From Octopus sinensis (lineage: Eukaryota): a DNA stretch of 64,000 nucleotides. The position numbers and the translations under genes are program-made. Under the pieces are notes generated by a model. It saw only the letters and a program-made list of their open reading frames with translations. It had not been told where the DNA came from and did not search any database. Shown piece by piece: positions 13 through 32,200 of the stretch. Each line of letters begins with the position of its first letter. The stretch's first letter is position 1. The DNA lies in the NCBI RefSeq assembly GCF_006345805.1, contig NC_043000.1, positions 119,536,001 to 119,600,000 of the forward strand. Direction: 5' to 3'.

Positions 13-3000
13 CTGTTGGTAAGAGGGGAACAGAGATGATAAATATCTTTTACCTTTTACTTGATTCAGTCATATGGCTATGGCCATGCTGGGGCACTGC
101 CTTGAAGAATTTTAGTCGACTTTTTTTTTTTTTTTTTGAAGCTTAGTACTTATTCTATCAATGTTCCTTTTGCAGAACCATTAAGTTATGGGGATGTAAA
201 CACACCAACACCGGTTGTCAATAAGTGGTGAGGGACACAAAGACACTCGCAAGGCCTTGATCGGCCTAAGGCTAAAATAGGAGGGACTTGCCCATGGTGC
301 CATGCAGTGGGACTGAAACCTGGAACCATGTGGTCGGGAAGCAGAGCGTCTTACCACACCACCAAGCCTGCACCTATATTCAAGTAATAATAATATGAAT
401 AGGTGCAGGCATGGCTCTGTAGTAAAAGGTCTGCTTCTCAACCACATGGTTCTGGGTTCAGTCCTATTGCATGACACTTTGGGCAAGTGTCTTCTACTCT
501 AGCCTCAGGCTGACCAAAGTCTTGTGAGTGGATGTGTTAAAAGGAAACTGAAAGAAGCCCATTACATATGTGTGCATGTGTTTGTCCCCAACAACAGCTT
601 GATAATGGGTGTTGTGTTTACATACTTGTAACTTAGTGGTTTGGCAAAAGAGACTGATAGAATAAATACCAGGCTTAAAAACATCTTAAGTACCGTAAAT
701 CCTCGAGTATAATCTGCATTTTTTTCCCCCAAATCCCTCGTGCGTACTATATACGAGGTTAAAAATGTAAACTATTTTCTAAGCAATGTCTGAGTCTATT
801 TGCTGTCCGGCAATGTTTATTCAGACGCATTTTGTGATGTCGGGTGCGAAAATACCTGAAGCTAAGTCTGAAAGCAATGAAGTCATAAAAGAATCATCCA
901 TAACTTGCAGTAAGCAACATTTATTAAAATAAAAGTATTCAGAACACAGAATAACATGTAACAAAAACAATTTGCAAACATATTTACATTCCCATATAAC
1001 AGTTAAGAACATCACCATTATTGTATTACGCATGCGCGGAAGTGTTTGTTCGACTAGGTGCTGCTGGCTTAATTATGAACGACTCAAGTTAGAAAAGGAG
1101 TGCGTATTATACACAAGGTTTAAGTGTTTCAGAGGTACAGCCCCTCCCCCCCCAATCCCCTGCGTATTATACTCGAAGATTTATGGTACTGGGATCAATT
1201 AACTTGACTAAAATTCATCTCAGCATATAGTGAGACTAATAATGGACCATCCCTTCAGAAAGGTAAGAAAGGGGTTTGTGTAGGGATAGTACCCCTATGT
1301 AGAAAAAAGGCAAAATTACAGAAGCATCAAAATGTTGGCTTCACAACCCAGTAATTTCCAGTTCATTCTCACTGCCAACAAGACCTGGGAGAGGAACGCC
1401 TTCTCTCAAGGCCCTGAGTCAAGAACAGTGAAGTTGTTGATGACCAATGCTCCATGGGGAGCGAAAGATCTAGATAATTAACTTGTAAGTGGAATTGGTA
1501 GATGGAAACTATATAGAAGCCTGTCATGTGTGTGTAGGTTTATATTCTGTATTTGTATGAAAGCAGTGAGGCAAAAATGAGGGCATTTGTTGTCATCATA
1601 ATCCTCTGGCCCTGCACATTCAAAAAGAAGTGGAATGATAAAAAAAAATCTGTTACTTGAAAAATTTGTGCTGTTAGTGATAGGAAGGGCAACATCTCAA
1701 TTAAATACATATTCATTCAAACCATGCTAGCATAGAACAGTGGACATAAAATGAAAACTATGGTCCATACAAGATTCTACATCATCTTTCCCACTGCTGC
1801 TGTACCTTGCATATCATCATCACCATTCACCTATCCTCCATGACATACTGCTATCGCTCTCATCTAAACCCCTCTCCATACTGGTATTTCCTATTAACAG
1901 TACCTCCACTCCTGTTCATGACTCACTAGTCACCTCTACCCCCAATCGCTCACCATCTGTTATTGTCCCTTCATACTCTTATGGAACTATCCCAACCCCT
2001 GATCCACTGTATCTTCTCTTATGCTCACCTTCTTGTACTTTGGAAATTCGCTCTGGAATCCATCACTACAATCCCCCCCCCCCGGTTACTTCCACCCACC
2101 CTTATACAATGCAGGGAAACCATATATCTCTCCTATAGCAAAATACCCGTGTTTGTTCCTCTGTCATAAAGCCCCCATCCCCATAGTCGATGGGTCTTTT
2201 TCATGTTTTTTCTTGCCTTGCAAATTACTTAACCTCACGAGTGCTGGTGGCACGAAGATGAACACTCAGTATCCACTGTGAAGTGGTTGGCATTAGAAAC
2301 CATGTCAGTGCTGACACTGAAGTTTGACATGGCCCCGCAGCTCACAGGATCCCGTCAAACTGAGGCCAGCATGGAAAATGAATGCTGAATAATGAAGATT
2401 ACTGTTCATATTATTGGAAGATTACTGTCAAGATTATTTCTATGTATATAAACGGTAAAATGTCTGTCTGTCTGTGTGTGTGTCCTTTATACAAATCCAC
2501 AATTTTTCAGTTAGAGGGCTCGCACTTTCTAAGGTCATTCAAAACCGTCCAAGGGTGGTCGTGCACATCTTCACATTTCCCCAGTCACCCCGCAAAGCCA
2601 TTAAAAGATCAATAGACAGCATCATTCTTTCAAACTGTACCTTTGCCTCCTGCTGAACAATGAAAGCATCAATAGCAACAACAATATACTGCAATGATGA
2701 TGTATAGTAATCAACACAAGAATAACACAAAAGTAGGTAGTAAAATATAAAAAAAAAAGATGGTAAATAAACAGCAAGAAGAACATTTACCATTCCATCA
2801 ATAGCATTTCTAAAATCGAAACAATCATAACGACGACGGTAAACTGCGAAAAGTCTATTAACCTAACAGCCACAACAACAGAAGTGTATCTCTGGTCGGT
2901 ATTAAACAGAAAACATCCAAATTTAGCACCTTACTTAAGATCTTTGTGAATTTTCTATCCAAAACCCAATCAAAATGCCCGAATCTTGATACGCTAATTG

Positions 3001-6000: not shown

Positions 6001-9000
6001 TGTGTGTGTCTCCCCACCATCATCACATGACAACTGGTGTTGGTTTGTTTACAGCCCTATAACTTAGTGCTTCAGTAAAAGAACACTGATAGAATAAGTA
6101 CCAAATTTAAGTACTGGGGTCAATTTGTTCAACTAAAACTTGTCAAGGCAGTGCTCCAGCATGGTCACATCCCAATGACCAAGACAAATAAAAGAAGAAA
6201 GTAATACAGGAGCAGGCATGGCTGCTGTGCAGTTAAGTCTGCTTCTCAATCACATGGTCTTAGGTTCAGTCCTACGGCATGGCACCTTGGACAAGTGTCT
6301 TCTACTAGAACCTAGGATCAATCAATACCTCATAGAAAGAAACTGTATGGAATCCCACCCAACCCATACAATTACATCATAATCCTGATCTTATCACTCC
6401 CTTTTGGGTTACCCTTATTTTTAGTACGCAACCCTCTATCTTTCCAATACTGCTGCCCTTTCTACACCTTGACAATCCTCTCATTTCCCTATCTACAACT
6501 TCTCTGGACCCTTATCCATCCATTGGTATGGGTTCACTGAACACCATCTTCATCACTTGATCTCTCCTGCCCAATCCTCTCTGATACTATTCGAAACCAG
6601 TTGGGCCAAGGGGTTAAGCTGAGGGCATTAAGCCCTTGAGCAAGGCAAATGAATGTACAAACACTAAAACAAGGAAATAACAGAAAGGGTCTTTCGACTG
6701 TCAGACGAACGAAACATAACAAATAGAATTATACACATACAATGGACAAAAGCCGACTATCAGCTAGTATAGGGCTTCTTTCAGTTTCCATTGACCAAAT
6801 CCAAGGTCTTAGCTGGCCTGGAGTCACAGTGGAAGATATTTGCCCAAGGTGCTGTGCAGTGGGACTGAACCAGAGACCACATGTTTGGGAAGAAGGCTTC
6901 ACAACCAGACAACTGCATCTTTGCCTATCAATGAAGATATGGCATCTCATTTTGAACTATTAACCACTTCTCTTCTCTAACATGACAGACATTTTGGATA
7001 AGTGTTTAGTAGGAGAGGCTGTTCAGTGTGAGAAAATATTAGGAACATATACAACGGGTATGCATGGCATCACTCCAATAGGTACAGGTGATGTAGTCTT
7101 CGTGTTTTAACAAATATAACTTTTATTACTGCTAAGTTAATACAGTAGAGCCAAATGCTTTCAAATAAAAGGTAGCAATAAATGCCTGTCTGCAAATATA
7201 GAATTCATCACCATCATCATTTAGCGTCTGCTTTCCATGCTAGCATGGGTTGGACGGTTCAACTGGGGTCTGGGAAGCCAGAAGGCTGCACCAGACCCAG
7301 TCTGATCTGGCAATGTTTCTACGGCTGGATGACCTTCCTAACGCCAACCACTCCGTGAGTGTAGTGGGTGCTTTTTACGTGCCACCGGCACAGCTGCCAG
7401 GCGGGGCTGGCAAACGGCCATAGTTGGATGGTGCTTTTTACGTGCCACCGGCACAGCTACCAGGCGGGGCGGGCAAACGGCCATGGTTGGATGGTGCTTT
7501 TTATGTGCCACCAACACGGAGGCCAGTCGGGGCGGCGCTGGCAACGGCCACGCTCGGATGGTTCACTTACGTGCCACCGGCACTGGTATCACAAAAGGGA
7601 AAATTAATCCGTGTGCATACCAGTGTCTAAGTAAATGTGTTGTGGAGTGCATGAAATCCCACTTGTGTTTGTTGTACGTAATTAAATGATAAATCCATAC
7701 AGATTGATAATAGCTGGTTGAATGCCAGATATCAAACAGTGACAGGTCTGAAGGTGAGTTTGCTTTGATGAGTGAAGGTAAGAAAGAGGAATGCTATGCT
7801 GTCCAACATGTGTGAAGAAGTCTTTCCTGACAGACTGGTCAAATACGTTGTCCACCATTCAACAGCAACTGCTAATTTTTTCAGTTTTCGCACCCTTTGG
7901 CTGTGTGGAAATCATCATGTGTATTCCTCTGCTGCTAAACACCAGCGTGGTGCTATGCTGGGGCAAAGTAATTTGACTAACCTGCAACAAGCAGTTCCCT
8001 TTATTTTTTTTTTTTGCTTACGAACTCCCTTTGATTCCAACTTTAACCTTACTGGACTTCCAAGGCCATTCAATATTTAAAAAAAACCCTATCATATTTT
8101 TATAATTAAATGTTTTAAAAAATTGTTTAAATATTTTGTATATTACAGAAGTACAACCAAATTCTTGCAAATAAACTTTAGAAAGCAAAATCTTATATGG
8201 ACCCCACAAGGGTTAAATGGATCCCAGCTGGGAACCACAGCTTTAGAGCTAAGAAAGTGGACTACTATGTGGTTACTGAACTTGTTAGAAACAACAGCTA
8301 AATCTCCCACAAATCACCTGTCTTAAGACATACTACAGAACTATAAAAATGGGATAACTACAGATGGAATTACTTTGATCACAGGTCTGCATGGTCAAGG
8401 TTGATCTAGAGACCAACAGCATGAAATAAGACTAATATCATCCCAATTAACTACTGCAATTAATTTCACAGTTGTAGGTTTAAACAGAGGGGAGAACACC
8501 CAAATGAATCAATAAATCTTGTAATAACTCACATGTGGTAGAGACATGTCCTCAACCATGTAGGTTTGTTGAATTGCTGCTGCAGCAAGTCGGGCAGTCT
8601 TTGCTAAGTGGACGAATTTGGTGAGAGAAGCTGGAATATAATGAACAAACGAGAAATTAGGAGACAAAACAGAGATTTTTGATCTGATCTTTTGCCTTGC
8701 CACAAGGACATTAGTTTTGAAGAGAAGGAAAGACAATTTTTTTCAACCAGTTCTCAACTGGTACTTCTGACTCTGAAAGGATGCTTGTATCATCCTCACT
8801 ATGTGAAAACAGGTGCCTGTCACACTTCACAAAGTAATATGCAAGCAATCACTCACCCTTAACTATACTAGCCACAACAATTTATGAGCAAATATTAAAA
8901 TTTATCAAATCCATTTGTTACTATACTTCTGTCGAGATGCTCTGTGTTTCTTTCAATTGATTTTTAAATATAGTGCCGCCTGACTGGCTCCTGTGCTGGT

Positions 9001-12000
9001 GGCACAGAAAAAGCACCCACTACACTTTCAGAGTGGTTGGCATTAGGAAGGGCATCCAGCTGTAGAAACATTGCCAGATCAGATTGGAGCCTGCTGCAGT
9101 CTTCAGTCAAACTGTCCAACCGATGCCAGCATGGATAGCAGGTGTTAAATGATGATGATGAACTTAGTAATCATTAAGTTAGTGTTAGGAACATAAATTG
9201 TGATTAAGGTCTGGTGGAAGATTTTAATTAATTCAAAACTTTTGAAAACAAGGCCCCTGCACAAGGATGACCTGCAGATTCGTGAAGCCTTCCAAGTTTT
9301 TATTGCTTAAGGCCATATCACATTGAAAGCTCAGGTTCCTGTCCGAGCACCGAAGTTAAGCAACGTCGAGCCTAGTTAGTACTTAGATGGGTGACCGCTT
9401 GGGAAACGTAGGTGCTGTAAGCATCACACATTTTAAAAGGCGGTGCTCCAGCATGGCCAAAGTCAAATGACTGAAACAAGTAAAAGAGTACTAAAGAACC
9501 AGAGGCGGTTTCAGCTGGGTTGGCATCAAAAGGGTTAACTTGTTCGATAAACCCAAAACAAATTCAGTAGAACAGTATAGTTAAGTTTAATTACAAATCT
9601 GGAAAAACTGGAAAAAAAAAGCCTCCCTTTAAATTTACAAATTACAGAAGGAATTTAATAAATTGTCATATTCACAGTGAACAGTGAGAATCAAAATAAT
9701 GATGGCGGTGGCACGTAAAACGCACCAACCGATCATGGGTGTTGCCAGCCTCCACTGGTACCTGTGCCGGTGGCACGTAAAAAGCACCATCCGTACGTGG
9801 CCGATGCCAGCGCCGCCTTGACTGGCTTCCGTGTCAGTGGCATGTAAAAACCACCAACCGATCGTGGCCTTTGCCAGCCTCCCCTGGCACCTGTGCTGGT
9901 GGCACATAAAAAGCACCCACTACACTCACGGAGTGGTTGGCGTTAGGAAGGGCATCCAGCTGTAGAAACTGCCAGATCAGACTGGAGCCTGGTGCAGCCT
10001 CCTGGCTTCCCAGACCCTGGTTGAACCGTCCAGCCCATGCAAGCATGGAAAACGGACGTTAAATGATGATGATTATTCACATATTCATTCTAAATACATT
10101 CCAACAGATTCGAATATCCACTTACTTGGATGGCAGTAAGTTAGAGCTAAGCTGATTAGTCTGTAAATCATGGCAGGTAAATTGTACTCATCCTGCACAT
10201 TCTCTTTTTCAAAATCCTCTCCATCAGATTCAGTGTCAGCTAAGTTTTCCAGTAGGTACATGCACAGATCATAAAGGGTCTCGGCTGTTATAGGACAGAC
10301 TTCACACTCTAGAAGTTTCCTGCAAAGGAAATGAAAAGTTCATAGAATCTCTCTCACATATTTTGTCTCATATTTTGAACCTCCCAAAAACCAATGATTA
10401 CACAATAATAACTATATAAATCTGAAATATTTAATACTAGCACTCTGACCCAGCAATGCCGGGTCATAGTGCTAGTGCATGCATATACAACTGTGTGCGT
10501 GCGCACATACACACGAGTACTGTCCAAATCTCCGACCAATCACATACAGCTAGCTGGCATTCAATTGGCATATCAAGTTTCAGGCATTTTGATTGGGTTT
10601 TGGATAGAAAATTCGCAAAAAAGTCACTTCTATTGATTTTTTTTAATGGCTTTGCAGGGGTGACTGGGGAAATGTGAAGATGTGCATGACCACCCTTGGA
10701 CGGTTTTGAATGACCATAGAAAGTGCGAGCCCTCTAACTGAAAAATTGTGGATTTGTATAAAGCACACACACACACAGACAGACATTTTGCCGTTTATAT
10801 ATATAGAGATAGCAATTCCAGTTGATCTGATCAACAGAACAGCTAGCTCTTGAAGTTAATGTACAAGTGGCTGAGTATCCCACAAATGTGCATGCTCTTA
10901 ACGTAGTTTTTAGGGAGAGTCAGTGTGATACATGTGGACAAGGCTGACTTGTTAAAAAAAAAGGTACAAATCATTTTTGTCAGCTGAATGGACTGGAACA
11001 ACATGGGATAAAGGGTCTTCCTTAACCCTTTCGTTACTGTATTCATTTTGAGATGCTCTGTGTTTCTTTCAATTATTTTAAATATAACAAAGAATTTAGT
11101 AAAATAACTTAGTTATCATTCAACTAGTGTTAGGAACATCAATTGTGACTAAGGTTTGGTGGAAAGTTTTAATTCAAAACTTATGAAAACAAGACATACT
11201 ACAGAGCCAGAGGGGGTTTCAGCCAGGTTGGTATCGAAAGGGTTAAGAATTGTTTCTCTTATATATTCTAACTCTTTCGTTACTGTATTTATTTTGAGAT
11301 GCTCTGTGTTTCTTTCAATTAATTTTAAATATAACAAAGAATTTAGTAAAATAACTTAGTTATCATTCAGCTAGTGTTAGGAACATAAATTGTGACTAAG
11401 GTTTGGTGGAAGATTTTAATTCAAAGCTTATGAAAATAAGACATTTGTACTACAGGACCAGAGCCGGTTTCAGTAGGTGAATTTTCCTAGGAGGGGACAA
11501 AAAATAAAGTCACAAATGAATGAGAAAGTAGCCAATAAATAGACGTAAACAAATTTGAATTCAAAACAATTACTAGAATCACAAGTGATGACACCACCTA
11601 CCGGTAGATATTAAAACTACAGTGCAATATGAACTCTGAAAGACCAATAACACAACTGAATTCAGGATTTCGTTCACTAAATTACACTACTTTATGGTGA
11701 GTATCTTAACATTTACTGTACATATTTTAACATGATTTTATATGCTTTTATTCTTATTTATTGCACAGTAACATGGTTTTATGTGCTTTTAACGGTTTTT
11801 TAAATGATTTTACGATTCCAATATTTGTGGCAGACAAATGTAAAGTCAAGTAAAATGACTTAACCTTTCGTTACTATATTTCTGACCAAAATACATCCCT
11901 CATGAGTTTCAATTAAATTCTAAAATAATCATGAATTTAGGCTTGTTTCATTAAATAACTAACTTTTTTACTTATCAACATATTAATGTGATATTTGGAA

Positions 12001-16350: not shown

Positions 16351-19300
16351 CCAATATCGCTTGACAACCGATGCTGGTGTGTTTACGTCCCTGTAACTTA
16401 GCGACTTGGCAAAAGGGACTGATAGAATAAGTACTAGGCTTACAAAGAATAAGTCCTGGGGTCAATGTACTCGACTAAAGGTGGTGCTCCAGCATGGCCA
16501 TAGTCAAATGACTGGTGCAAGTGAAAGAGTTATCAAGAACAAAAATCCCATAACTAACCCACCAAAGACACAAAGAAAAAGAAAAACAGGTAAGGGGGAT
16601 TAAGCAACAGAAGATGGTAGCGAGGATTTGATGGGTTGTACACCCCAGAACATATATGGTGTGTTTAGCCAAGCCTTGTGAACATGGTTCCATAAAGTGT
16701 GTGCTTTCCCTGAGCCTATCTCTTCCCCCACACCTCGTTACTTCTCTCCTTATCCTTAGACAAAAAGCAAAGTGTCTCAAACCATTACACATATCTTGAA
16801 CTTCTCTATGTTGATTGATTTTTACCAGTTTCCTTCGGTTCTGGATTGTATAATACTGAAGTGATCATGTGATTGACCAGACTATTGGGTGTTACACCTC
16901 GCTGGTCACAATGCGCTTTGCATCATTTTAGCTTTTTAATGATGTCACCCTGCTGGATAAGAAAGCTAATATGTTGCAGGGGTACCCATTTACAACTGAA
17001 CGAACTGAAGCATCATGAAATATATTGAATTGCTTAGGAACACAACATGCCACTCGGTCTGGGTGGCACGTAAAAAAGCACCATTTGTGCTTTTTTACGT
17101 GCCACCTGACTGGTTCCCATGCCGGTGGCATGTAAAAGCACCCACTACACTCTCGGAGTAGTTGGTGTTAGGAAGGACATCCAGCGGTAGAAAACCATGC
17201 CAAATCAGATTGGAGCCTGGTGCAGCCTCCTGGCTTGCCAGTCCTCAGTCAAACCATCCAACCCATGCCAGCATGGAAAGCAGAGTTAAACAATGATGAC
17301 GAATATAGTGATCATGGATGCAACACCCTGTAAAAATCAACACTTTCTTCTCCAAGCCTAGATTCGAAACCGAATCTAAGAATTCTCGGTCGTCCAAACC
17401 ACCACGATCAACAGGTGCAAAAAGAGGCTTTCTTTGTCCTGTCTTTGACCTACAACCTAAGCTATGTTAGGTGAAGTTCAAATGGACAGGAGCTGACCTA
17501 TTTAGGTAGAAACTCTGCTGCAGTATGTCTGTCCTTCTAGCTGCCACGATTATTATAAATACAGTGGCCAACAGACAGACAGAGAGGAGAAAGGCCTAGC
17601 AGGCAAATGAGAAAGGTCTATGATGACAGGTTTTGAATGACAGTAGAAACCCGAGAGAAATGTTTCAAGTTCCACCGTAGACTACTGATCTCAGATGAAC
17701 TACGCACACACACAAACATATCCATTTCTGATACAGCACTTCTACAGATGTACCCTGTTTCTATTTCTAGCAACTCATGGCAGTTGTCAACATTTTGCAT
17801 GTAGTGAAGAATTATGTGTACCAACGATAAATTAAGCCCAGTGAATAAATTATTTTTAACTATTAATCGATTCACTCATTTGTTTACTTCAAAGACATAC
17901 ACATTCCTTTTGCATCTGTTCACCTGAGACACACACATAACCACTATAACCCTAACCACTAGGCCTTCACAATACTAAAGTAGCCAAACAAAAACAAAGA
18001 ACAAACCCCACCTTTAAAGTCGGTAAGGAAATAGACCAAGCAATGATAAATGTTATTTACCTGCACAACCTGCATTCCATTTCAGGCTGGAAATAAAACA
18101 GTAAAGTACTAATTTATGGTGTTTAGAAAACATGGAAGTAAAGTAGTAATATTAGAATGGAATGGAAGTGATGCTGTGGCAAAACGATAAGAGAGGAGAA
18201 ATATACATGGTTTAGCCTTGAGTGGATTTGGTAAATGCAAGTCGATGAATATGGTCATGTGTGTGTACATGTGTATATATATGATGTATAATAGTATTGA
18301 ACAAAAAGAATGAATGTTTTACTGGTATTTAATTTATTGATCCTGAAAGGATGAAAGGCAAAGTTGACTTCATTGGAATTTGAATTTAGAATGTAGTGAT
18401 GGGTGAAATACTTATTTTTTACTACCCACAGAGAGGACAAACTAGGACAGACAAACGGGTTCAACCTTGAAAGGATGAAAGGCAAAGTCGACCTCGGTGG
18501 AATTTGAACTCAGAACTTAACGGCAGACGAAATACCGCTAAACATTTCGCCTGGCCTGCTAACGTTTCTGCCAGCTCTCCGTTAACCATTTTGCCTGGTG
18601 CTAATGATTTTGCCAGCACACTGCCTTCATAATAATATAATAATAATATAGAAATTAACTGTCAACCCTACAGTAGCTGTAGGGGCACTGGGAGCATTAA
18701 CAACCAGGTTTGAGAAATATGTTGGAGAAACTGGGATCGCCATGAGGGTAGAGCATGTTCACAAAAACTAATTTATTGAAGACAGTGAGGATTTTGAGAT
18801 TGGTACTCGGATGTTAAATATTATGGAAAGAGACCCCATGAGATCTTTGACAACAGATTGTTGTCTGCTCTTATAGAATTAAGCAGGGCAAGCGAAATCA
18901 AGAGCTCTGAGAAGTGAAATGGAAATAACAACAGTGATGACGTAATTATCATTATTTAACCCTTTCGTTACTGTATTTATTTTGAGATGCTCTGTATTTC
19001 TCCCAATTACTTTAAATATAACAAAGAATTTAGTAAAATAACTTAGTTATCATTCAGCTAGTGTTAGGTACATAAACTGTGACTAAGGTTTGATGGAAGA
19101 TTTTAATTCAAATCTTAAGATAAGATAGACATTTGTACTACAGAGCCAGTTTCAGCCAGGTTGGTATCGAAAGGGTTAAGAATTGTTTCTCTATTATATA
19201 TTTTAACCCTTTTGTTACCATATTTATTTTGAGATGCTCTGTGTTTCTCTCAATTACTTTAAATATAAACAAAGAATTTAGTAAAATAACTTAGTTATCA

Positions 19301-22300
19301 TTCAGCTAGTGTTAGGAACATAAATTGTGACTAAGGTTTGGTGGAAGATTTTAATTCAAAATTTATGAAAACAAGACATTTGTACTCAGAGCCAGAGCCG
19401 GTTCCAGCTGGGTTGGTATCGAAAGGGTTAATGTCTGTTTTCCATGCTGGTATGAGTTGGATGGTTCAACTGAAAACGGGTAAGCTGGGGAGCTGCACCA
19501 GTTTCCAGTCTGATTTAGCAATGGTTTCTATAGCTGGATGCCCTTCCTAACACCAACCACTCTCAGACAATAATAATGGTGGTTTTAAATTTGATGGGAG
19601 TAGGAAAGTCAATTACATTGACCCCAGTGGATAACTGGTACCTATTTTGCCAATCATGAAAGGATGAAAGGTAAAGTTGACCTTGGTGGAATTTGAACTC
19701 AGAATGTGCCTGGTGTGATAATGATTCTGCCAGTTTGCCATCTTAATAATAATAAAAATAAATGCCCTGATGCAATACTAGGCAGTGGCTCTCATGGCTT
19801 CTGATCTTAACTGATTGGGAGCGTTATCATGTACATTGTTTTGTCTTGGTATAAAAGATGGCCTACAGCAAATATTCTGCTCAATACCACAGATTTGCTT
19901 GACTTCAACCAGTTGAGCATGTCTATTAGTGGCTGATGATATGTGCATCTCTGATCACGAGCAGAAGTAGTGGGGGAGCATCATAGTCACGTGTTAAGAG
20001 GAATTCTTTGGGATTTGGATAATTCACCACTGGAAACATGGGTGTTTCCTTAAACAATCCTTATTCAGGAATCTTTTGAGTGGGATAGGCTACTTGACCT
20101 GAAGAAAATTCTAAGTGGGCTCCATCTGTAAGGTCATGCACTGTTTATCTTGATATAAGATCACCATGCTTCTGTGCCGGTGGCATGTAAAAAGCACCAT
20201 CCGATTGTAGTCTTTGCCAGCCTCCACTGGCACTTAAAAAGCACCCACTACACTCACGGAGTGGTTGGCGTTAGGAAGGGCATCCAGCTGTAGAAACACT
20301 GCCAGATCAGACTGGAGCCTGGTGCAGCCTCCTGGCTTCCCAGACGCTGGTCGAACCATCCAACCCATGCTAGCATGGAAAACGGACATTAAATGTTGAT
20401 GATGGTGTTACGCACATATGGTTGTGATGCATGTGCCTGGTGTACCCTAATCAGACGAGTAGTCATGATGAGTATACTGGACTTTGTATATTTGTTCCCT
20501 TGTGTCACTTTTATGGCATGCACTGCACTCTCACTCACTAATAATAATAATAATAATAATGATGATGATTTAAAAAAAAAAACGCACTTACTTCCATGTT
20601 AAATTCTGGTAGAGTTGTGTTGATGTAATCCCACAATATCATCTCTCTGAAATGAGGCTTTTGAAATTTGTGAAAGGAGGGATACAAGTGAAACTCAACC
20701 TGAAAATAACAAGCAGTAGAAGGAAGTTCAGGTGAAAGACATCTTGCAAAACAGAAAAACCAGCAGAAATCCTACGAATAAAGCAATAAAAATAGAAAGA
20801 AAAAAAAAAAAAAGGGAACCCAACAGGAATAGCAGTCTCTCTAATGGGCTTCCAACACAGTTGGATAAATCAGACTGGTTGACAAATTAGTTAATCTATA
20901 TCTATATATATATATAAAGCTGAAATTGTCTGTGTGTGGCAGGTTTGGTAGGCTTCAACTAACACTATCTCCTCTGAGACCCTGCGGCGCAAGTTGACCA
21001 AAATTGAGAGTATGATAGAAGAAGGCTTGCTCTTCCTTCCGTAGAAGAAAAATTCAAATCGGTCCATGTTAGCTTCACCCTTTAGCATTCAGATGACTCT
21101 TCCAAACGTAATACTTATTAATATGCATTGTTTTCAATTCATCAAGAATTATTTTGTAACTTTGAAAGTTCAATGATGTCATCATCATCATCATTTAATG
21201 TCCATTTTCAATGCTGGAATGGGTTGGACAGTTTGACAGGAGCTGGTAAGGTTGGGGGCTGCACCAGGCTCAATCGTTTGTTTTGGCATGTTTTCTATGG
21301 CTGGATGCCCTTCCTTATGCTAACCACTTGACAGGAGTATACCGGGTGCTCTTTATGCGGCACTAGCACCAGTGCTTTTTACATACATGGCACCCCACGC
21401 TAGTGCTTTTTATGTGGCCTCTGTACCAGTGCTTCCTACTTACCATGGCACCAGCACCCTTGATTGTTTACTTTTATAATGACATTGAAGGGTAGGTGTG
21501 AGAGGTTGGACCTAGCTAATTCAAACAAAAAACAGGGAAGAATATTTGGCCTGGAAATGGCTGGCTTAAAGGCTAAAAGGTTTAAGAAGCAACTTCATAT
21601 TTTTGAGATGTAATTTGTCTAATTGTACAGATGAATGATCACCAAAGACTCTGAGATCCAACAATTGGAAACACTGTGAAGGTGACTTAATCATGGTGAC
21701 AAACTTAGAAATTAGTGTAAAATACAGGTGACAGTAGAAACCAATTCCTATATTAAAAGACAAGTTCACAAAATAGTTGAAATAAAATATAGTGATAGAT
21801 AAACATCTTACTTGCAGAGATTGTAGATGCCCGAAATCTTTTTTAAGCTCAGCAAGAGTCTCCGTTTCAAGGAAATCTGAAAATCGAATTAATACAAAAG
21901 AAATTTAATCACTAAATCATCATTGTTTTCATGAGTACTTTTCCATGCTTGAATGGGTTGGCCGGGGTTTACTGAGACACATTTTGAATGGCTGGATGCT
22001 CTTCCTGCCATCAACCCTAACTTGTTTCCAAGCAAGATTACGTGGTAATGCTCCCCAGGACCAAACTTTTCTGCATCATCATTGTCGTTAACATCCGCTT
22101 TCCATGCTGGCATGGGTTGGACTGTTTGACTGAGGACTGACAAGCCAGAAGGCTGCATCAGGCTCCAATCTGATCTGGCAGAGTTTCTACAGCAGGATGC
22201 CCTTCCTAATGCCAACAACTCCAAGAGTGTAGTGGGTGCTTTTAACATGCAACTGGCACGAGGGCCAGTCAAGCAGTACTGGCATCGACCACACTTGAAT

Positions 22301-29234: not shown

Positions 29235-32200
29235 AAGATAGAAAAATGGGTTGCAGAACTCACTCTGGTTGCCTTAGTTTGGTAGTATTGTCTACTAGTG
29301 TGCGAATACCATCAGACCATGGAATTGGTGCCCATTTAATGACTTCCAGCACAGCAGAAATCTTTAACTAAAAGAAAAAGAAAACAAAAAAACAAATTTG
29401 TTTTAAATACTTTTGTCTAGAAATACTTTATTTCTAGTAGTGAGTATAACCTAAGTGTAGTTTAAGCCCAACTCAAGAAAGACCTCAAGGCATTTAACCT
29501 TTCAACATTCAGATTTCTCTGTCAAATGTAATGCTTATTTATTTTTAGAGTAATGCTTTAGGTAGGGTAGGTACGAGAGGCCAGACCTGACCAATTTGAA
29601 CATTAAAAAGGGAGAATATTTAGGGCTGATCTTTGACCCTTTATTTTTTCCTCTTTTCATATTTCTTTACTACCCACAAAGGGCTAAACAAAGAGAGGAC
29701 AAACAAAGGGATTAAGTCGATTACATTGACCCCAGTGCGTAACTGGTACTTAATTTATCGACCCCGAAAGGATGAAAGGCAAAGTCGACCTCGGCGGAAT
29801 TTGAACTAAGAACGTTACGGCAGCTGAAATACCGATTAGCATTTCGCCCAGCGCGCTTAACGTTTCTGCTAGCTCGCTGCCTTTTTCCTCATTTCAGTCA
29901 CCAGACAGAAGCCATGCTGGAGCACCACCATGAAGGATTTCGAGTTGAATGCATCGATCCCAGCACTTATTTTATGCAGCCGGCTACTTATTCTACCGGT
30001 CCCCTTTTGCTGAACTGCTAACTCATGGGGATGTAGACAAACCAGCACTGATTATCAAGTGGTGGTGGTGGGGACAAACACAAACACATAGATATATGCA
30101 TTTATACGACAGGCTTCTTTCAGTTTCCATCTATCAAATCCACTCACAAGCTTGGGGCTGTAGCAGAAGACATCTGTTGAAGGTGCCACACAGTGAGACT
30201 GAACCCGAAACTATGTGGTTGGGAAGCAAGCTTCTTACCACACAGCCACGCCTCCGCCTATGGGCAGCTTAAATGCTAAAGGGTCAATACAGAGGGTGGC
30301 AAGCCAGCAGAAACATTAGCATACTGGGAAAAATGTTTAGCGGTATTTTATCTGTCTTTATGTTCCGAGTTTAAATTCCGCTGAGGTCAACTTTGCCTTT
30401 CATCCTTTTGGGGTCGATAAATTAAGTACCAGTTGCGCACTGAGGTTGATCTAATTGACTCCCCCACCCAATTTTGGGGCTTGTGTCTATAGTAGGAAAA
30501 TGTTAGCATGCTGGGTGAAAGGCTTAGCAGTATTTTGTCTGCCTTTATGTTGAGGCAAATTCCACCAAGGTCGACTTTGCCTTTCATCCTTTCAGGGTCG
30601 ATTAAATAAGTACCAGTTAAGCACTGGGACTGATGTAATCAACTTAATCCCTTTGTCTGTTCTTGTTTGTCCCCTCCATGTTTAGCCCCCTGTGGGTAAT
30701 AAAGAAATAAATACAGTAATACAGTGTCTGACTAATTCTGCCATCTGCAGTTCTTATAAAAATGTATTGAAATGCCCAGTTAATTATTTTTGATGGAATA
30801 TGAGACATAATTTTGTTTTTCTAGAACAAGGTCTTAATAATGAAAAAAACTGGATCCTATATGTGAAATTGGGCTTATATTACATGCTTTAACCCTTTTG
30901 TTACTGTATTTATTTTGAGATTCTGTTTCTTTCAATTACTTTAAATATAAGTAAAATAACTTAGTCACAATTTATGTTCCTAATACTAACTGAATGATAA
31001 CTAAGGTTTGGTGGAAAGTTTTAATTCAAAACTTATGAAAACAAGACATTTGTACTACAGAGTCAGAGGTGGTTTCAGCCGGGTTGGTATCGAAAGGGTT
31101 AAGAATTGCTTCTCTATTATATATTTTAACCCTTTTGTTAGCGTATTTATTTTGAGATGTTCTGTGTTTCTTTCGATTAATTTTAAATATAACAAAGAAT
31201 TTAATAAAATAACTTAGTTATCATTAAGCTAGTGTTAGGTACATAAGTTGTGACTAAGGTTTGGTGGAAGATTTTAATTCAAAACTTATGAAAACAACAC
31301 ATTTGTAATCAGAGCCAGAACGGGTTTCAGCCAGGTTAGTAATGAAAGGATTAAAGCACTAAAAACTGTTTTTCCTAAGGCACGTAAAAAGCACCCACTA
31401 CATTCTTGGAGTGGTTGGCATTAGGAAGGGCATCCAGTTATAGAAACTGTAATGGGACTAGGTTTCTTATACCTGTGGAGTATCTCCTCCCATTACAATA
31501 ATTTTTTGTAGTCTTGGGATTCTGGAACTCAAAGAAGAAGAGGCTTACAAGTGGATGTAATTCAATGGTTGTTTATTTGGTTCTCATTTCAAGGGGTTTG
31601 CTCCCAGCAACCATCTATATGTCAGCATGTAGTTCATTAGCTCCGTTCATGAGAGGTACATTACCTCTGGAGATAACGAGTAAAGTTAGAGTGGGTTAAG
31701 AATCCGCTGTGAGCTGCTACGTTGCAGTGTTGTTCAACGTGAACGCCAACGTGAGAGAAGAGAACGGGTTGCTCAATACACCTCCTTAAATAGATGTTGC
31801 GCACAAGAGCCTCGCTGTGGTCTCGCGCATGGCAAACATGGTTGTAGGCGAGATCTTGCTTCTGTCTCGGACCTGGTAATGGCAGCCGGCAAGATCTAGT
31901 ACAAAATGGTGCTGGTTTCTTGTGTCATGCTACAAAACTTCGCCAGATCAGATCGGAGCCCGGTGCAGCCGCTGGCTTGCTATCCACAAGTCAAACTGCC
32001 CAACCCATGCCAGCAAGGAAAGCTGGACACTAAAGTATGATGATGATGTACTTCTGAAACTTGAGTGCATCCAATATGCCTGAGTATCTTTTGTGCCATT
32101 AAATATGGTAATGGTTTTCAAGTAAAGCTAAGTGAGGCATTAAAAATGGTGACATCAAAGAAAAAGAGAAAAAACACCAAATAGTGGATTCTACACAATA

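Follow-up and report, generated by a model that had tools for sequence, protein, structure and literature searches.

The window, a 64,000-nt stretch of the Octopus sinensis assembly (NC_043000.1, positions 119,536,001 to 119,600,000), carries at 9252–9488 a composite block of small-RNA and retroelement sequence, every part of which lies on the + strand; the initial annotation had already noted the common orientation. The block opens with a 5'-truncated U6 snRNA copy (nt 58–107; 9252–9301) ending in a T5 run (9297–9301). An ATT linker (9302–9304) stands between this T5 and the start of a complete 5S rRNA copy (9305–9423), which is followed by a 5S precursor-type 3' trailer, TCACACA plus T4, written TCACACATTTT (9424–9434) and found in 88 dispersed copies. 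The last part is a two-hairpin SINE/LINE 3' tail (9435–9488), opening AAAAGGCGG and carrying a GTAAAAGA repeat unit, which we call tail A; this name serves as a working label, as do tails B, C and D and SINE-A.

The 5S part matches the full RF00001 model in an Rfam search at 91.2 bits (gathering score 38); it is complete, as had been claimed, with its end at 9423 and not at 9424. The U6 part had been described as a 3' half with its native T5, and it is indeed 43/50 identical (7 mismatches) to nt 58–107 of a U6 gene of the same genome (L061). A covariance-model check with RF00026 recovered it with an E-value of 6e-9, while the score of 41.5 bits falls under the gathering score of 44 and good alignment is confined to the 3' half. 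The tail, first assigned to SINE family A, is up to 94.5% identical over 55 nt to the 3' ends of SINE copies within the window and folds into two hairpins (9435–9488, z -3.1); it starts at 9435, one A earlier than first placed. Compared with the majority of its variant, the 5S copy has nine private changes in 119 nt, none of them in the internal promoter region (positions 50–97), and a difference of this size indicates that the insertion is not recent. The variant itself differs from an array gene at four shared positions.

The host of the block is a MITE of ~225 bp with the ends TTAACCC...GGGTTAA, of which five whole copies (214–229 bp) lie in the window, at 11022, 18956, 19203, 30889 and 31126. 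Its left part (8914–8972, +) was recognised by eye from its likeness to these whole copies, with the left terminal repeat unmatched. The middle part (9161–9252, +), which reaches to the insertion point, is 85–88% identical to four window copies over 91–92 nt, and the right part (9488–9538, +), with the terminal AAAGGGTTAA, was placed by window matches and alignment. Between the left and middle parts a separate SINE (8973–9160, +), lying outside the chimera, also interrupts the MITE. It has many window matches for 9100–9161, and the (GAT)n in which it ends is the same tail as on an RT-encoding LINE in L344.

Intact host copies read GAAAACAAG-ACATTT-GTACT, and the composite site lacks the six bases ACATTT. 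No target-site duplication (TSD) frames the block in the alignment against uninterrupted host copies, which bears out the earlier description of a MITE interrupted with a few bases lost. At the 5' joint one G (9252) is common to host and U6, a 1-nt microhomology; at the 3' joint GTA (9488–9490) is common to host and the tail A repeat unit, a 3-nt microhomology, and the MITE resumes directly past a single tail A. Elsewhere in the window the MITE occurs in head-to-tail pairs with a similar ~23-bp spacer (11022–11520, 18956–19431 and 30889–31354), which suggests a dimeric unit, and a copy at 31002 has an internal inversion.

Two public DNA runs each contain a contig that spans the succession of host, U6, ATT and 5S (X1, 9200–9376, no differences, depth 23; X2, 9200–9374, one difference, depth 26), and for this reason we do not regard the composite as an assembly artefact. 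Run X1 possibly derives from the source sample; X2 is labelled as a different organism and belongs to another study. Two further runs, X3 and X4 (~76% and ~80% read), gave no coverage of the U6 part, and contigs of four runs guessed to be RNA match just the common part of the 5S. "Skip" joints in contigs of the DNA runs were considered as an empty allele and are read as other MITE copies instead. The composite is a real, single-copy insert. T runs terminate Pol III and the U6 half lacks a promoter; since T5 would stop the polymerase before the 5S and T4 before the tail, the block should be unable to spread as a unit. The locus shows no sign of function and is probably a dead pseudogene.

Uniqueness of the U6-5S junction

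With the U6 half plus the start of the 5S as a DNA query, the 2.72-Gb genome gave 43 candidates. Among the 40 that were scored, the junction was crossed at the composite locus only (0/39 other U6 matches), and no 5S followed U6 in the 29 other loci fetched from this query. A loose junction pattern found four matches against one in a control, with U6 at the composite locus only. The strict form of the pattern returned nothing, missed the composite locus itself and is hence uninformative; the reverse order (5S leading into the 5' end of U6) gave no pattern matches in a search made without a positive control. An exact U6 3'-end pattern had 309 matches, and the first 100 listed were used; 28 genes of a tandem array were dropped and 72 copies kept. 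No 5S lies downstream of any of these 72 non-array copies, among which longer U6 copies are present. Viewed from the other side, none of the 87 other 5S copies with the TCACAC trailer has U6 upstream. Over the full set of 88 loci, this was judged by Rfam at 79 (with an E-value cut at 59 and the gathering score at 20) and by ARAGORN and U6 BLAST at the remaining nine. ARAGORN below -ps90 called many spurious upstream tRNAs, which were left unused, and Rfam miRNA and snoRNA matches at 5S loci, far under their gathering scores, were dismissed. For diverged copies these genome junction searches are lower bounds.

The initial annotation had weighed a 5'-truncated member of a U6-5S-headed SINE family against a one-off double template switch, and had itself named a junction unique to this locus as the test of the former. 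The junction is unique in every genome search, which goes against such a family; with no second U6-ATT-5S junction found, the one-off switch is supported. U6 genes proper form a tandem array of ~28 genes with 1.1–1.4 kb spacing and a variant 5' stem-loop (G000:C1:141.83-141.96 Mb, L069–L088), and single U6 genes of other types stand outside it (L061, L066).

U6 and 5S fusions across the genome

Past the T run, 59 of the 72 non-array U6 copies (from the first 100 of 309 listed) are fused to other sequence: 25 to SINE heads, 30 to tails and four to mid-SINE points. Two more, over and above this count by classifier, join another SINE (L253) and a LINE ending (GAT)n (L291), bringing the count to 61 of the 72 listed. 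Spacers at these fusions vary and different U6 gene variants share the same tail, while two pairs among the 72 resemble local duplicates. At most ~3 of the 72 listed (L248, L272, L293) have neither a partner nor a gene-like flank. In four loci (L249, L260, L284 and L287; e.g. G000:C3:123687617-123687755, C1:192676065 and C3:80175910) U6 lies in an inverted fold-back arrangement, and L249, L260 and L284 have a common non-SINE 3' flank (L260 is flank only); these may represent a small palindromic repeat that bears U6, or else a DNA element associated with U6. A U6-tRNA-SINE chimera is tandemly repeated with 326-bp spacing (L089/L090, G000:C6:53578633-53579064).

The 88 5S copies with the TCACAC trailer, assigned by a classifier with 11 rows reassigned by eye, are joined to whole tRNA-SINEs (60), tail B types (13), tail A (5, the composite locus included), mid-SINE points (3), tail D (2), the head of a second SINE (1), a 2-kb LINE (1) and other sequences (3). 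A single 5S trailer is thus found on at least seven partner types. Spacers are diverse, with 40 distinct ones among 58 5S-SINE junctions and, over several trailer types, 20 among the 5S-tail A junctions of 23 loci, counts that T-run slippage can inflate. Judged from sequence, most of the dispersed U6 and 5S copies sampled are chimeras, and the composite locus is one of hundreds of similar small-RNA fusions in the genome.

The initial annotation took CACACATTTT, between 5S and tail, for a family linker; it behaves instead as a 5S-precursor 3' trailer plus terminator, joined to many partners. Array 5S genes have short, varied trailers ahead of T runs and some of these trailer types recur in dispersed copies. 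The most fitting interpretation of the TCACAC trailer is hence that it stems from the 3' end of a 5S precursor, with its T4 as the putative Pol III terminator. None of the 88 exact matches is a gene with this trailer. The 5S gene cluster at G000:C4:131.78-131.98 Mb (L092–L119), in which genes lie in both orientations with irregular spacing and varied 3' trailers, likewise showed no TCACAC-trailer gene.

The 5S-trailer-tail portion (9305–9488) might on its own be taken for a SINE3 element, as it has a 5S head with the internal promoter region (full RF00001 match). Its head-tail junction is not uniform among relatives (20 spacers in 23 junctions; at least seven partner types), and in its sequence a T4 precedes tail A, where transcription would have to pass into the tail. 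From these features we read 9305–9488 as not belonging to the lineage of one SINE3 master. Copies of 5S plus tail are common among the best matches (40 scored of 2286 first-look candidates), and one of them, L017, has a 5S-tail spacer identical to that of the composite, with three other copies near-identical, so that a small 5S-tail lineage may be propagating; L017 is without the composite's private changes in the 5' part of the 5S. The 60 fusions to whole tRNA-SINEs may include a true 5S-tRNA SINE subfamily.

Chains of more than two RNAs occur at other loci as well. In L172 (G000:C7:19421457-19422276, locus 197–414) a degenerate tRNA-Phe(GAA) with trailer and T5 is followed by a full 5S and a SINE head, and in L246/L347 (G000:C1:188870799, L246 308–520) a tRNA-Lys(CTT) with trailer is followed by a 5'-truncated U6 and the 5' part of a second U6; for L172 and L246 an origin in a single event is putative. 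With the composite locus left out, three-part chains come to 1/87 in the 5S set and 1/72 in the listed U6 set, or ~1 in 80. A chance find outside these counts, L124 (G000:C26:13844245, locus 1302–1517, minus strand), joins a 5S with trailer to a pre-tRNA-Leu(TAA) with leader and trailer and to a tail D ending (GAT)n. Given hundreds of U6 copies and probably more 5S chimeras, a rough reckoning from such a process would expect about one U6-5S-tail arrangement.

Partner LINEs and the origin of the block

An RT-encoding LINE family (L346 type) carries a two-hairpin tail, B', homologous to tail A, at the end of 27 of 30 copies. Hairpin 1 and a GAAAC motif are common to tail B' and tail A, and on the strength of these shared features tail A likely belongs to a sister LINE of the tail B' family. 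No LINE bearing tail A itself was present at the 30 highest-ranking RT loci, which lie on unplaced contigs, or at 20 RT loci on chromosomes, and 30 relatives of the L346 LINE have tail B', not tail A. Going by motifs, the L346 family may be CR1-like and the L344 family RTE-like. In L212, 5S is joined to a LINE of the family with tail B' and an RT domain, the second LINE family met in these fusions after the (GAT)n-ended one of L291. The L346 family (G000:C12925:1-2400; L351–L379) is abundant, with 22427 first-look candidates and tail B' ends, and several SINE families and chimeras have variants of tail B' in which the two-hairpin shape is kept. The top RT matches (L294–L323; C10288, C12597, C1794 etc.) are near-identical young LINEs, on unplaced contigs only among the listed matches and unlike the chromosomal families; contamination by another organism is possible.

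We consider it probable that the block is a single-copy chimeric retrocopy, likely the product of a single insertion during which a LINE reverse transcriptase made two template jumps. Reverse transcription would have been primed at a nick in the MITE, the target GTA pairing with the tail repeat unit, and would have copied the ~55-nt tail of a SINE-A RNA. The enzyme would then have switched to a 5S precursor at its oligo-U 3' end, copied trailer and 5S up to +1, added a few untemplated bases and jumped once more, to the U5 end of a U6 RNA. A stop at U6 nt 58 and joining to the target via the 1-nt microhomology, with the 6-bp loss, would complete the insertion. We infer the jumps, their order and the responsible LINE. 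As looked for in template switching, the parts are fused directly and in one orientation with the retrotransposon 3' end last, and the junctions are unique or varied, as independently formed ones are. Across the chimeras, the start of each tail piece falls in a short A-run immediately 5' of hairpin 1, whole SINEs are complete from base 1, with a few A/T bases in addition, and upstream partners end in their native U run.

The ATT linker likely consists of untemplated bases, a reading that fits the bases ahead of dispersed 5S heads (TATG in 8, ATAT in 4 and TATT in 3 of 37), which are unlike those ahead of genes (TGAT in 16 and TGTT in 8 of 31). Template jumping by the R2 reverse transcriptase needs untemplated nucleotide addition (PMC8857657). 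Alternatively, ATT could be left over from the target's lost ACATTT (3/6 match). As to the missing TSD, a framing TSD is typical of L1-made chimeras, and in part of the L2/RTE-made ones it is short or absent (PMC4476161).

A single jump would have sufficed had U6 been joined to a transcript reading through a 5S-tail copy already present in the genome, that is, an incipient SINE3. Such copies with tail A are common among the best matches (23 loci), L017 has the same spacer, and the internal promoter region of the 5S is free of private changes. However, the 20 distinct spacers and several trailer types in 23 junctions, the at least seven partner types found behind the one trailer, tail A among them in just 5/88 copies, the lack in L017 of the composite's private changes in the 5' part of the 5S, and the T4 ahead of the tail that read-through would have to pass make this course of events unlikely. 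Two separate insertions, a 5S-tail copy first and a tail-less U6 fragment beside it later, would agree with the match of ATT to part of the target ACATTT and with the lack of a TSD framing the block, but we regard them as very improbable: U6 without partner or gene-like flank makes up at most ~3/72 of the listed copies, and by a rough estimate there is only a ~1 in 10,000 chance that, in a genome of 2.7 Gb, a fragment would insert no more than 3 bp from where a 5S copy ends. In some animals 5S genes are linked to snRNA genes, and a fragment of a linked U6-5S gene repeat could be suspected here, as could an artefact of assembly. Either is hardly credible, as no spacer or promoter lies between the parts, fetched U6 genes have no 5S within ~1.5 kb, fetched 5S array loci have no U6, and contigs of two DNA runs cross the junction.

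The RNAs could instead have been ligated first, by an RtcB-type activity as for human U6/L1, and then reverse transcribed. RtcB joins U6 with a 2',3'-cyclic phosphate end to 5'-OH RNAs in the experiments described in PMC6789731, and the tail junctions, which fall in one short A-run 5' of hairpin 1, look like the end of a cleavage product. Ligation is nonetheless distinctly improbable in our estimation: the 5S begins at the exact +1, a triphosphate in the primary transcript, and a 5' triphosphate sharply reduced ligation (PMC6789731); it leaves the three extra bases unexplained, and trailer-bearing 5S and tRNA precursors, not known to end in a cyclic phosphate, were captured likewise. As to a 5'-truncated member of a U6-5S-headed SINE family, snRNA-headed SINEs exist, as do 5S heads added to tRNA SINEs (PMC4494074), and genome searches are lower bounds for repeats, but the want of a second U6-5S junction in those searches, the two internal terminators and the lack of an internal U6 promoter leave such a family extremely improbable.

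Beyond the double jump that we favour for this locus, we offer only tentatively, and with some doubt, a broader proposition for this genome. Having copied a ~55-nt tail RNA or an entire SINE RNA to its end, LINE reverse transcriptases would routinely pass, end to end, to whatever Pol III transcript terminates in oligo-U, precursors of 5S and tRNA that are still unprocessed among them, and at times to several in succession. If true, the genome would hold independent proto-SINEs by the hundreds or thousands. Such a set could be counted as a record of SINE head acquisition, would give an in vivo rate of serial jumps (~1%) and would reveal a 5S gene variant of which no gene turned up in the assembly.

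Comparison with known chimeras and SINE families

Template switching is the proposed route of SINE head and tail gain (PMC4476161 and PMC4494074). It is usually seen in a handful of copies, whereas here it would involve most of the dispersed U6 sampled; nearly all sampled 5S copies of one variant are also fusions, with at least two LINE tail types and several multi-RNA chains. Recurring breakpoints just 5' of the tail hairpin, together with the chains, allow a quantitative test of jump against ligation, and repeat-library tools could make false SINE3 or U6-SINE consensus families from such fusions. The composite locus itself is ordinary; the capture of Pol III precursors across the genome is the more interesting lead. 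In the open full-text literature, as covered by titles, opening lines of abstracts and selected passages, neither a U6-5S-tail element nor chimeras of this kind from cephalopods came to light; U6+5S combinations could be listed in the supplementary chimera tables of PMC11838501 and PMC2104539. Passages of PMC4824008, PMC10886601, PMC7245038 and PMC4758252 likewise describe no such element in cephalopods.

Like the SINE3 and SINEU elements treated in Kojima 2015 (PMC4494074) and PMC10886601, the block has a small-RNA head, and its tail may, like theirs, be derived from a LINE. Those, however, are families descended from master copies, whereas here the block is single-copy and its type of 5S-tail junction non-uniform. 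Kojima 2015 also sets out how a family can be told from an accumulation of individual retrocopies, and by those arguments the composite element fails as a family.

Human U6/L1 and 5S/L1 chimeras have been catalogued (Law et al. 2025, PMC11838501). As in these mammalian chimeras (PMC11838501; Moldovan et al. 2019, PMC6789731), the fusions described here are recurrent and independent and are made to a LINE 3' end. The 5S pieces in human 5S/L1 are mostly antisense and truncated in these two papers, whereas here the 5S is sense, complete and followed by its trailer.

Doucet et al. 2015 (PMC4476161) report fusions of U6 to L2, to RTE and to the SINEs of these LINEs from platypus, opossum and lizard. 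The U6 is often 5'-truncated and the TSD short or missing; examples are U6-L2 and U6-Mon-1 in platypus and U6-RTE and U6-AnolisSINE2 in lizard. The block resembles them in a 5'-truncated U6 whose 3' end abuts a short LINE/SINE 3' piece, in the short or absent TSD and in priming at a simple-repeat tail, and differs in the extra full 5S in its middle and in its invertebrate genome. U6 reaches into its 5' half in 47/72 listed copies here, whereas the platypus copies in that account are nearly all truncated.

Tripartite chimeric retrogenes, namely WEIRD-MgSINE-MGL in Magnaporthe and B2-U6-L1 in mouse, are described in Gogvadze et al. 2007 (PMC2104539), so that double template jumps have a precedent. 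The block has in common with them three RNAs set head to tail in one orientation, a retrotransposon tail at the 3' end, recurring switch points, and rarity among two-part chimeras (1 vs 33 there, ~1 in 80 here). Unlike them, it carries two passengers that are both housekeeping Pol III RNAs, one of them an unprocessed precursor with its trailer, and its 3' part is just a ~55-nt tail, inserted with a 6-bp loss and no TSD.
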